Translations under genes and position numbers: made by a program
Notes under the pieces: model-generated
Seen by the model: the letters and a program-made list of their open reading frames with translations, nothing else
Database searches by the model: none
What the model was told of the DNA's origin: nothing
Shown: positions 1,786 through 3,047 of the stretch, one piece after another
Position numbering within the stretch: the first letter of the stretch is position 1
How the letters are laid out: each line of letters opens with the position of its first letter
Source of the DNA: a virus
Lineage: Duplodnaviria; Heunggongvirae; Uroviricota; Caudoviricetes
Length of the DNA stretch: 11,200 nt
Direction: 5' to 3' (one strand)
IMG/VR virus record: IMGVR_UViG_2529292736_000009
Span: 1 to 11,200 of that record

Positions 1786-2544
1786 TCAGGCTGGCGGCAC
1801 ACCGCCGCCACCCATCCACTAATACAGAGATCTAACCATGAATACTGGATATTCTCCCGAACAAGGGCGGGGCTTCGTTCGTCCTGAAAAACAGAATCTG
1901 CAAAATTTTGCCGAAATTATTCCGGTTATTTCCGGCCTTACTGGCGGGAGTGAAACCAATATTGTTAACGCCAGAGCGTTGCAGATGTTTGATGATAAAA
2001 AGGGAGTAAATTTAACTTACACCCCTGACGGCAATCAGAATATGAGCATTATCTCTGAGTCAGGTTTCTACAAACTAATAAAAACAAAAAGCGCCCCGTT
2101 GCCGGAGCGCCTTTGTGAACAATTAACCTACTGCGCACAAAATGAATCTGAGCAGTGGGATTATATCAACCGTGTGGCGAAGCGCCACAATTGCCGGATA
2201 ACAGGCAAAACAAAGGCCACCCGCTACGGTGGCCCCTCGACACAAGCTACACGTTATCCCCAACGCATGAGCATCACCAACAATGCCACATTTGCGGCTG
2301 GTGGGCAATGTGATCAGTCAGATTTGGTTCGTTCCAAGGTTTGCAACGAGAGCTTTTTCCTGTGCTCTTTAAGGAATTTCTCAAGAGCAAAAGCACATGG
2401 CGCGAATCTTTCTGATTCATGCTCTATCTTTCTGCGCCGTCTTTTCCGTGCCGGTGATAATGTTTTGGTCAATTCTTTATCGGTCATTGTGTTGTCCTGC
2501 ATAGCAATGCGCCGTAATACCTTACACCACGGCGCTGATGGTGA

Positions 2545-2850
2545 TTACTCTGGTTCTTTGGTCTTGCGACGCTGGAGTTCTTCGCGTGCAACGGTGACAA
2601 GCTGCCCGATTTCTTCCGCTGCTTTGATGCCGATTTGTTCGACCTTAGCCAGGGCATCCAGTGACGACACAAGGGGATTTTCTCCGCTGCCTTCTGCTTG
2701 GCGGCGGGCTATTTCTCCGCGCATGGCGGTTACGATAAATCCGGCATTGCTTTCGCCGTCCAGCTTAACGGATTCCATCCCTTGCATAACATCTAGTGGG
2801 ACTCTGACAGTTGTCAGTTGTGATTTTGCGTTTTTGTTAGCCGTTGCCAT
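2545..2850 (-). CDS. Ribbon-helix-helix (Arc/Mnt/CopG-like) DNA-binding protein, candidate repressor
   Basis: 101 aa; strong SD (AGGAG 8 nt upstream of ATG on the minus strand); N-terminus LTTVRVPLDVMQGMESVKLDGESNAGFIVTAMRGEIARRQ fits the RHH strand-helix-turn-helix pattern (VxVP...GxSxAxxIxxAxR); C-terminal ~55 aa could be an oligomerisation tail as in Mnt. Confidence 0.65.
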   Translation of the reverse strand: MATANKNAKSQLTTVRVPLDVMQGMESVKLDGESNAGFIVTAMRGEIARRQAEGSGENPLVSSLDALAKVEQIGIKAAEEIGQLVTVAREELQRRKTKEPE

Positions 2851-2911
2851 TTCTGAAACTCCTAATCATCGGTGTGTTTCAGTATACACAAAAAAAGAAA
2901 TACAAAAAGCC

Positions 2912-2950
2912 TTGACGTGTGTTTCATGCGCTCATAACATGAAACACACC
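2912..2950 (+). promoter_or_regulatory. Sigma70-like promoter (TTGACG -35 at 2912-2917, 17-bp spacer, TAACAT at 2935-2940) overlapped by a 12-bp inverted repeat operator (GTGTGTTTCATG / CATGAAACACAC, arms 2917-2928 and 2938-2949); a third half-site copy GTGTGTTTCA at 2872-2881
   Basis: Seen directly in the sequence; located between the divergent RHH gene and the rightward operon of small genes leading to rep. Confidence 0.55.
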
Positions 2951-3047
2951 AAAAGAATTGTTGAAATACAAAGAGCAACGCCCCGCAGTGCCGGAAACAC
3001 ATACGGGGCGTCTAACCACCAACGATAGCAAGATTATCGAGGCTGCT

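Follow-up and report, generated by a model that had tools for sequence, protein, structure and literature searches.

Locus and question

Why does a plus-strand reading frame of 396 codons stay open through two genes of the opposite strand and through the control region of the gene that follows? The question is raised by positions 1 to 11,200 of IMG/VR record IMGVR_UViG_2529292736_000009 (Caudoviricetes), a stretch of 11,200 nucleotides, called the window below, that is an enterobacterial phage-inducible chromosomal island (PICI-type satellite). The frame begins 52 nt past the stop codon of alpA, passes through a minus-strand operon with the gene of a ribbon-helix-helix (RHH)-like regulator, and ends just ahead of an icd-like gene (Table 1). 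In a first-pass annotation, made from the letters alone, it was read mainly as a decayed antirepressor-type gene that runs on incidentally into the antisense of the repressor gene. The evidence collated here points to a different answer. The frame is probably a stub of Bro-network genes (codons 1-81) fused to a read-through open reading frame (ORF; codons 82-396) similar to eta of phage P4, and is kept open for its translation and not for its product.

Extent of the open frame

Over the same 1191 nt, 21 and 26 stop codons were counted in the other two plus-strand frames and 11-17 in the three minus-strand frames, and none of 20,000 shuffles was free of stops in the frame. Among the open runs of the window it ranks third, behind those of the RepA helicase and the integrase. 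Its existence, from 1838 through the RHH-like gene and its promoter, was confirmed as first described, and is far beyond chance. Codons 82-158 cross two minus-strand terminator-like hairpins, the stronger of which reads as KSAPLPERL in the plus frame; codons 159-221 lie antisense to a gene for a small basic protein and codons 236-338 antisense to the YlcI/YnfO-family gene of the RHH-like regulator, and codons 339-396 span operator-like repeats, a promoter-like site and the leader of icd. The earlier description of this remainder as antisense to the repressor gene was correct for the YlcI/YnfO gene and has to be widened to the second minus-strand gene and the two hairpins.

Beyond residue 81, no family matches to the frame were obtained in Pfam, NCBIfam and PHROG profile searches. 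Phage_ASH was not found in the frame with Pfam, and NF033153 (phage_ICD_like) did not match the 396 residues; the adjacent gene (3048-3251) matched the latter with E 1.4e-19. A scan of the whole window against Rfam (E <= 1) gave no match, so no RNA of the CI, C4 or isrK type explains the region. Codons 82-396 have a composition of S 13%, A 10% and R 9%. A database copy of the frame (P0001, 396 aa, 99% identical) is named 'hypothetical protein'.

Conservation of the open frame in related islands

Protein searches with the frame gave hundreds of database matches 425-540 aa in length, most of them named 'host cell division inhibitor Icd-like protein', which cover 98% of the query with 59-81% identity, tolerate large in-frame indels and continue into Icd. 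Since such matches favour open frames, icd served as the anchor for sampling loci, with the conserved Icd C-terminus as tblastn query and annotation ignored. A contig scan with a single Icd protein gave 9 loci, and an IMG/VR scan with an alignment gave 80 (L019-L098); 70 IMG/VR loci corresponded to 52 distinct upstream variants. The E. coli comparison loci are designated L002-L007, and loci from outside E. coli came from E. ruysiae, Cedecea, Rahnella, Enterobacter, Rosenbergiella, Superficieibacter, Intestinirhabdus and Tenebrionibacter. L001 is the RefSeq copy of the identical island (NC_017652.1, E. coli clone D i14), and L018 is phage P4.

The icd frame was open for 579-1245 nt upstream of icd in L002-L007 and in the eight other species. 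Per 900 nt it held 0-10 stops, with seven loci at 0-1, and the two remaining plus-strand frames held 11-23. The long frame ended in phase as Kil/Icd in 11 of 13 comparison loci and in 45 of the 52 IMG/VR variants, and 45 of the 52 were open for at least 400 nt upstream of icd. Four further variants, the window type included, carried an equally long frame in a shifted phase that ended just ahead of icd. The segments between the RHH-like gene and icd, which consist of diverged promoter DNA with no minus-strand coding constraint, were stop-free in all 13 loci; shuffling gave P ~0.002-0.06 for each of 11 segments of 159-354 nt, two short segments being uninformative. The open frame reached 140-590 nt beyond the minus-strand genes. 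These genes were in the same register with the long frame, third positions coinciding, in 14 of the 14 loci that keep the icd phase, and the register was kept with more distant variants of the minus-strand regulator too (19-25% identical; L003, L012, L013 and L014). Judged from these comparisons, the long plus frame across the repressor gene is a conserved and selected property of the island family. The view that a genuine overlapping frame was the less likely case, and the remainder incidental, therefore had to be given up, though what is conserved is openness and not a protein.

The start sites are conserved as well. In L004 and L007 the long frame starts at an ATG that overlaps the stop codon of an intact antA/BRO gene and follows a strong Shine-Dalgarno (SD) sequence (GGAGG-N9-ATG). 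The product there opens with MCNALTVTKRKSAPLPERL, and window codons 83-95 (KTKSAPLPERLCE) are the same sequence, so a deletion has fused the Bro stub in frame just past the normal start. Two types of start were found among the 52 variants: an SD-ATG where the upstream gene ends (MTHKTKAT.., MNITKSAPLPERP.., MCNAL..), and Bro-stub fusions of differing length right after alpA (MNTGY.., MKIEY.., MKTGY..). The fusions represent several independent deletions, all of them in frame.

Constraint on the two strands

Mismatches between loci were counted by codon position. On the minus strand, positions 1:2:3 gave 183:115:380 in the RHH-like gene and 71:72:144 in the gene of the small basic protein; by this third-position excess in both, constraint at the protein level falls on the genes of the minus strand. 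Within the overlap, variation is lowest at the second codon position of the minus strand and not at that of the plus frame, and the AT skew switches sign at ~2325-2850, as expected for minus-strand coding there. Outside the overlapped genes the mismatches were even (74:79:71), with no codon periodicity, and there are homologous bases whose reading phase differs between islands. Nothing in the even mismatches and changing phases points to selection for an amino-acid sequence; the only selection visible is for phase and for freedom from stop codons. Apparently it is the openness, or translatability, of the frame that is selected, and not a protein sequence.

These counts bear most directly on the idea of a genuine long protein, that is, a functional Bro-network or Icd-like product whose sequence matters and whose gene lies antisense to the repressor gene. 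The extensive database matches appear to favour it, and full-length homologs had been named at the outset as proof of a real gene; such matches do exist, but as third positions are shared with conserved minus-strand proteins, their identity arises automatically and by itself proves nothing. Phage_ASH is present in some of the database proteins (P0102), good translation starts are seen in relatives, and P4 Eta is treated as a Bro-network protein in the part of PMC10111431 that deals with it. Against this stand the even substitutions outside the overlapped genes, the homologous bases read in differing phases and the conserved second position of the minus strand within the overlap; moreover, the window frame has neither an Ash nor an Icd domain, is cut off ahead of icd, and belongs to a group in which large in-frame indels are tolerated. 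A long functional protein is thus an unlikely explanation.

Origin of the 5' part

By alignment, codons 1-81 are a dead, chimeric stub without function, derived from two antirepressor genes of the Bro network; its start is of the AntA type and its continuation is a middle fragment of BRO-N. Window positions 1500-1983 are 92.6% identical to L004 1215-1698, where the same ATG opens an intact AntA protein of 266 aa (L004:1553-2353; PF08346 E 2.3e-23). The similarity to this gene stops at nt 1983 (residue ~48), where the AntA domain of the L004 protein (residues 43-117) has barely begun, and PF08346 found no match in the window frame. Positions 1976-2080 are 91-93% identical to 1501-1608 of L003 and L005, inside intact BRO-N genes of 192 aa (PF02498 E 4.9e-20); the crossover between the AntA and BRO-N parts lies at ~1976-1983, with the microhomology GCGTT. 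From there on, positions 2080-2574 match L003 2053-2547 with 94.7% identity, and in L003 that sequence lies 445 bp further on, 3' of the BRO-N gene. The deletion junction has 2-3 shared bases.

With Pfam, Bro-N (PF02498) scored 14.4-16.6 bits on the frame (E 0.012-0.059; cut-off 25.6 bits), the match covering profile positions 34-85 of 96 at residues 49-91, which is not a complete domain; intact Bro-N neighbours scored 66-72 bits. Seven anti-repressor PHROGs matched residues 47-81 (E 9e-6 to 3e-3), and all of them ended at residue 81. Compared with BRO-N/AntA proteins (PF02498, PF08346), the frame resembles an AntA-type gene start in codons 1-48 and the second half of Bro-N in codons 47-81, but the AntA domain is missing altogether, as are the first half of Bro-N and the C-terminal parts.

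Intact Bro-network genes occupy the same slot in L003, L004, L005 and L007; among them are the AntA gene of 266 aa and BRO-N genes of 192 and 185 aa. Much of what the first-pass annotation had proposed for this end was borne out: a decayed antirepressor-type gene does lie there, the expected BRO-N similarity appeared in profile searches (below threshold in Pfam, and in the seven PHROGs) and breaks off at residue 81, and the alpA-proximal slot proved variable across related islands. The loss of the original 3' part at mosaic junctions, namely the crossover at ~1976-1983 and the ~445-bp deletion at ~2080, is supported by the alignments. The BRO-N-like block is real as well, but it is a fragment, and the Bro-derived part amounts to the first 81 codons (20%) and not to a third of the frame.

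A decayed 5' end could suggest that the whole frame is a by-product, with a ruined BRO-N/AntA gene running by chance into a shadow frame antisense to the repressor gene, as the first-pass annotation preferred. Codons 82-396 have the composition usual for translated antisense or non-coding sequence, the frame crosses terminator hairpins, no family matches it past residue 81, codon periodicity is lacking outside the overlapped genes, and the copy in L001 is unannotated. Chance does not account for the recurrence of openness, icd phase and register in diverged islands of at least nine species and in 45-49 of the 52 IMG/VR variants, unconstrained promoter and spacer segments included, nor for conserved SD-ATG starts placed over the upstream stop in relatives and several independent Bro deletions that are all in frame. 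A pure by-product is accordingly held to be quite improbable.

Promoter region, icd leader and phase offset

The window is mosaic here, its left part (RHH-like gene and promoter) being L005-like and its right part (icd onward) L003/L008-like. By alignment, the junction lies in or just past the leader stem-loop. The two modules are one base out of phase, and the frame therefore ends at TAG 3026-3028 and not in icd. As icd is read in another phase, Kil/Icd does not form the terminal part of the frame in the window. The stop codon sits in the 5' arm of a predicted hairpin that includes the icd SD sequence, 20 nt ahead of the icd ATG.

Selection for translation with another purpose has to be considered at this point: the frame might serve to silence or disturb the convergent RHH operon, by head-on transcription and translation or by a stabilised antisense RNA, or only to melt the hairpin that masks the ribosome-binding site of icd, and not to block Rho. 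Its head-on course through the whole operon and the position of its stop inside the predicted SD-masking hairpin agree with this, but the masking hairpin is invariant, so covariation can lend it no support, and the precedent in P4 concerns termination and not interference. We regard such a purpose as rather improbable.

Three copies of a 10-11-bp motif (GTGTGTTTCA, two direct and one inverted) flank the -35 and -10 elements of the icd promoter-like site. The motif depends on the variant: at the same places, other island variants carry, for example, GTGTTCAACAC and GTGTAAGACAC, which suggests immunity-type-specific operators of the divergent RHH-like protein. From its position and from these variant-dependent repeats, the RHH-like protein probably controls the internal promoter through the GTGTGTTTCA repeats.

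The leader stem-loop is kept in structure and not in sequence (a wholly different variant in L038/L060 pairs nonetheless) and has no Rfam match. Right after it follows an invariant C-rich, G-free stretch, CUAACCACCAAC.

Table 1. Positions, strands and supporting observations for the open frame and the surrounding elements of the window.
Feature	Position	Strand	Evidence or remark
396-codon open frame, probably a Bro stub fused to an eta-like read-through ORF	1838..3028	+	ATG 1838, stop TAG 3026-3028
5' end of AntA-type antirepressor gene (start codon and ~48 codons)	1838..1983	+	92.6% match to L004; protein alignment
Internal BRO-N gene fragment, second half of Bro-N domain (aa 47-81 of frame)	1976..2080	+	Nucleotide identity; PHROG matches
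Deletion junction (~445 bp relative to L003)	2078..2081	.	Joins Bro stub in frame to eta-like ORF just past its usual start
Start of long frame in L004			GGAGGAAAACAGCC-ATG-TGTAA
Start of long frame in L007			GGAGGGTGAAAGCA-ATG-TGTAA
Strong intrinsic terminator of minus-strand operon, predicted	2087..2114	-	12-bp stem, 4-nt loop, U-rich tail; also in computed fold
Second terminator-like hairpin	2212..2237	-	Minus-strand RNA 2250->2070 folds with z = -4.05
Gene of small basic protein, 62 aa	2314..2502	-	PHROG 21027 E 1.9e-14; annotated counterparts in L004 and L007
YlcI/YnfO-family, RHH-like regulator, 101 aa, candidate island repressor	2545..2850	-	NCBIfam NF041551 E 1.6e-17
Operator-like repeats	2871..2950	.	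GTGTGTTTCA at 2872-2881 and 2917-2926; inverted TGAAACACACC at 2940-2950
Promoter-like site (icd), consensus match only	2912-2940	.	-35 TTGACG at 2912, -10 TAACAT at 2935; TTGACG-17-TAACAT
Conserved icd-leader stem-loop	2978..3011	+	6 pairs with compensatory changes in 26 variants; window fold z = -2.5
Invariant hairpin (CGATA/TATCG plus CC/GG), predicted	3019..3042	+	Pairs with icd SD GAGG 3039-3042
icd-like gene, 68 aa, same family as phage P4 Kil	3048..3254	+	NF033153 E 1.4e-19; in most relatives the C-terminal end of the long frame
alpA, Vis/AlpA-family regulator	1597..1785	+	Pfam Phage_AlpA E 2.7e-18; RefSeq annotation of identical island; gene directly 5' of frame
Integrase	1-1230		Gene opening the window

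Comparison with phage P4 and other known systems

An ORF of 214 codons in P4 (L018, 8812->8168) starts inside the 3' end of vis, an AlpA-family gene, and its last 65 codons match NF033153 (E 1.6e-21; window Icd, E 1.4e-19). P4 Eta matches Phage_ASH with E 4.5e-23. The link between Icd and P4 Kil comes through the NCBIfam profile only, P4 having been missed by tblastn of Icd against the phage collection and direct BLASTP being weak (E 0.005). The P4 genes eta and kil are nested in the leader of the alpha (left) operon. According to PMC10111431, which summarises Forti et al. 1999 (J Bacteriol 181:5225), eta has a constitutive promoter within it, Kil corresponds to a truncated form of Eta, the complete Eta is translated only when transcription starts at the late promoter upstream, and eta translation prevents transcription termination.

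The window shares with eta/kil a long ORF that begins at or after a Vis/AlpA-family gene and spans an internal promoter (in the window a consensus match only); in P4 and in most relatives of the window it ends as a Kil/Icd-family protein of ~65 aa. It differs in that two genes of the opposite strand, one for a protein regulator and a small second one, lie in fixed register within the window frame, which is ~2-2.5 times longer and stops 20 nt ahead of icd. It may therefore be filed as a frame that would work like eta/kil and is not a sequence member of the Eta (Ash) family.

The layout Integration/Bro/Replication/Late is shared with the Gram-negative PICIs whose 'Bro zone' is treated in PMC10111431 and with the AlpA-activated EcCICFT073-type PICIs of PMC6092414, as far as the relevant sections of these papers describe them; the frame of the window has the position of their Bro-network slot, between alpA and the replication module, where related islands carry intact Bro genes. 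As in those accounts, the Bro genes of the slot swap domains and decay. The same passages differ in treating long frames as genes of Bro-network proteins, and they do not describe an embedded antisense RHH gene, a fixed codon register or a lack of protein-level constraint. A literature search on YlcI/YnfO and on an Icd-like/antisense arrangement in PICIs found nothing relevant.

The immI operon of phage P1 consists of c4 antisense RNA, icd and ant, and translation of its leading ORF is tied to the expression of downstream genes. It likewise places a small Icd-family gene beside antirepressor-type genes, but the window has no C4-like RNA (Rfam, E <= 1), and its regulator is a divergently transcribed protein gene.

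Proposed role

If the frame is kept open for translation, its working could be as follows. Helper-induced AlpA would drive transcription from upstream of alpA, the Bro stub would still supply a start codon, and ribosomes on the frame would follow RNA polymerase across ~1.2 kb of otherwise untranslated, head-on antisense RNA. Their shielding would prevent Rho-dependent (and hairpin) termination, and the transcript could run on to icd and the replication genes, past the internal promoter that is under RHH control. The termination site in P4 is reportedly Rho-dependent, and nonsense mutations in eta are said to be polar. In the window, translation would stop inside the hairpin that masks the ribosome-binding site, and no Eta-Icd fusion protein would be made; a terminating ribosome could still open the hairpin and couple to icd, so that both shielding and coupling could persist. 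For EcCICFT073-type PICIs, the corresponding part of PMC6092414 states that AlpA activates its own promoter and the downstream genes and that the helper phage induces AlpA. Translation itself, the part played by Rho and the repressor function of the RHH-like protein are what we infer from anatomy and comparison.

Several observations weigh against this interpretation. The frame was left unannotated in the RefSeq copy of the identical island, its ATG is preceded by a weak SD sequence only (GAGA), L003 has no good start codon for the long frame, and two to three of the 52 variants have short open stretches only. The frame-broken type is common (~8% of variants, 4 of 52; protein P0059 on at least 1000 contigs), so continuity with icd is dispensable. 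All pairs of the hairpin around the icd SD sequence are invariant, and covariation can thus give no support to SD masking. GC skew revealed no clear C-rich, G-poor, rut-like signature over the antisense part, and no claim of a rut site is made. P4 has a Phage_ASH region and same-strand CI RNA/seqA elements, both lacking in the window, which limits the parallel to architecture, the homologous Icd/Kil gene excepted. Because the sampled loci are related to one another, the counts are not independent trials, and the overlapped part alone is weak evidence for selected openness.

The last point was quantified by synonymous resampling, given the minus-strand proteins: the antisense register came out stop-free with P 0.26-0.77 per gene, and 20 of the 20 genes tested are stop-free. 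Being weak for each gene, the resampling was rejected as main evidence and used as support only. The minus-strand proteins contain hardly any Tyr (5 in ~1350 residues), which looks like a consequence of the overlap more than its cause. A passive constraint, by which minus-strand genes with few Tyr, His and Gln codons together with conserved regulatory DNA happen to exclude stops in that phase, would fit these resampling values and the nucleotide-level conservation of hairpins and operators, but is very improbable, as it leaves unexplained the promoter and leader segments that differ greatly in sequence and length and yet are stop-free in phase, the open stretches beyond the minus-strand genes and the SD-ATG starts, and as the scarcity of Tyr looks more like an effect of the overlap.

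Selection for translation, as preferred here, may tentatively be extended to the group, although this wider proposal is somewhat doubtful. Enterobacterial PICI-type satellites would keep a translation-only frame of ~0.7-1.4 kb antisense to their own RHH-like operon, in wobble-to-wobble register and normally continuous with Icd/Kil. The two strands would then form the island switch, in which the RHH-like protein, as global repressor, holds the internal promoter off, and AlpA-driven, shielded read-through overrides it and collides with repressor expression. If so, selection for translatability alone would shape both strands of a regulatory region, down to the depletion of Tyr in the repressor, and the locus would offer a clear case from nature of an overlapping antisense frame kept for translation and not for its product. 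For annotation, one explanation would cover frames that now appear, depending on the genome, as nothing at all, as pseudogenes ('BRO-N domain-containing', 'hypothetical') or as 'Icd-like proteins' of 425-540 aa. For satellite biology, it would link Gram-negative PICIs mechanistically to P4, and the embedded RHH-like gene with its variant-specific operator-like repeats would be a candidate for the global repressor whose existence in Gram-negative PICIs is called 'unclear' in the relevant passage of PMC6092414.

Minus-strand elements

The RHH-like protein has a strand-helix-helix sequence pattern, which agrees with a ribbon-helix-helix fold. PDB sequence and profile searches with it gave no significant match, the best profile hit being the Arc repressor (E 0.21), and the single-sequence AlphaFold model was of low confidence (pLDDT 61). 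The protein occurs in two forms, of 59-67 aa and of 101 aa (window 2545-2850 compared with L002:2260-2439 and others); the longer consists of the short form plus an in-frame insert of 42 residues (AEGSGENPLVSSLDAL...) ahead of the conserved RRKxKExE tail. The antisense long frame remains open across this insert.

The gene of the small basic protein follows the RHH-like gene after 42 nt, shares its minus-strand phase, and is left out of the RefSeq copy. The core of its product reads SPxRKRRRRK...HESERFAPCxFALEKFLKE. Further downstream on that strand, the RNA 2250->2070 is strongly structured (fold z = -4.05), a chain of five hairpins ending in the strong terminator, and could be either a structured 3' untranslated region of the RHH operon or a separate small RNA. 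Segment 2070-2250 behaves as a cassette, present in L002 and L003 and replaced in L004 and L005.

Island setting

The gene order is integrase, alpA, variable slot, the divergently oriented YlcI/YnfO-family gene, the Icd-like gene and small genes, followed by an AAA_25/RepA helicase, SSB, lambda-type capsid E, decoration D, a second AlpA-like gene, a Nu1-type small terminase and a host Smr-domain gene. The slot between alpA and the replication module is highly variable. Near-identical copies of the island were found in 41-62 complete E. coli genomes, and parts of the region in ~2,150 of 5,426 genomes, which indicates heavy mosaicism.

The late zone (6757-9302 and 8175-8558) brings its own lambda-type major capsid E and decoration D together with the second AlpA-family gene and the Nu1-type small terminase; portal, protease and large terminase are absent from the window. 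In this it resembles the capsid-gene-bearing PICIs described in the pertinent part of PMC10111431.

In L001, fragments of IS66, IS110 and IS630 lie on both island flanks (2817-7239 and 18053-19686), beside tRNA-Asp. The right side of the island in the window adjoins the host Smr-domain gene, so the same island occurs in different contexts. Between the alpA stop and ATG 1838, a GC-rich hairpin without a U tract (GGCGGC-ACAC-GCCGCC, 1793-1809) is common to the window and L004; at the equivalent place L003 and L005, which have a different integrase/HTH (helix-turn-helix) module, carry a classical terminator with a U tract.

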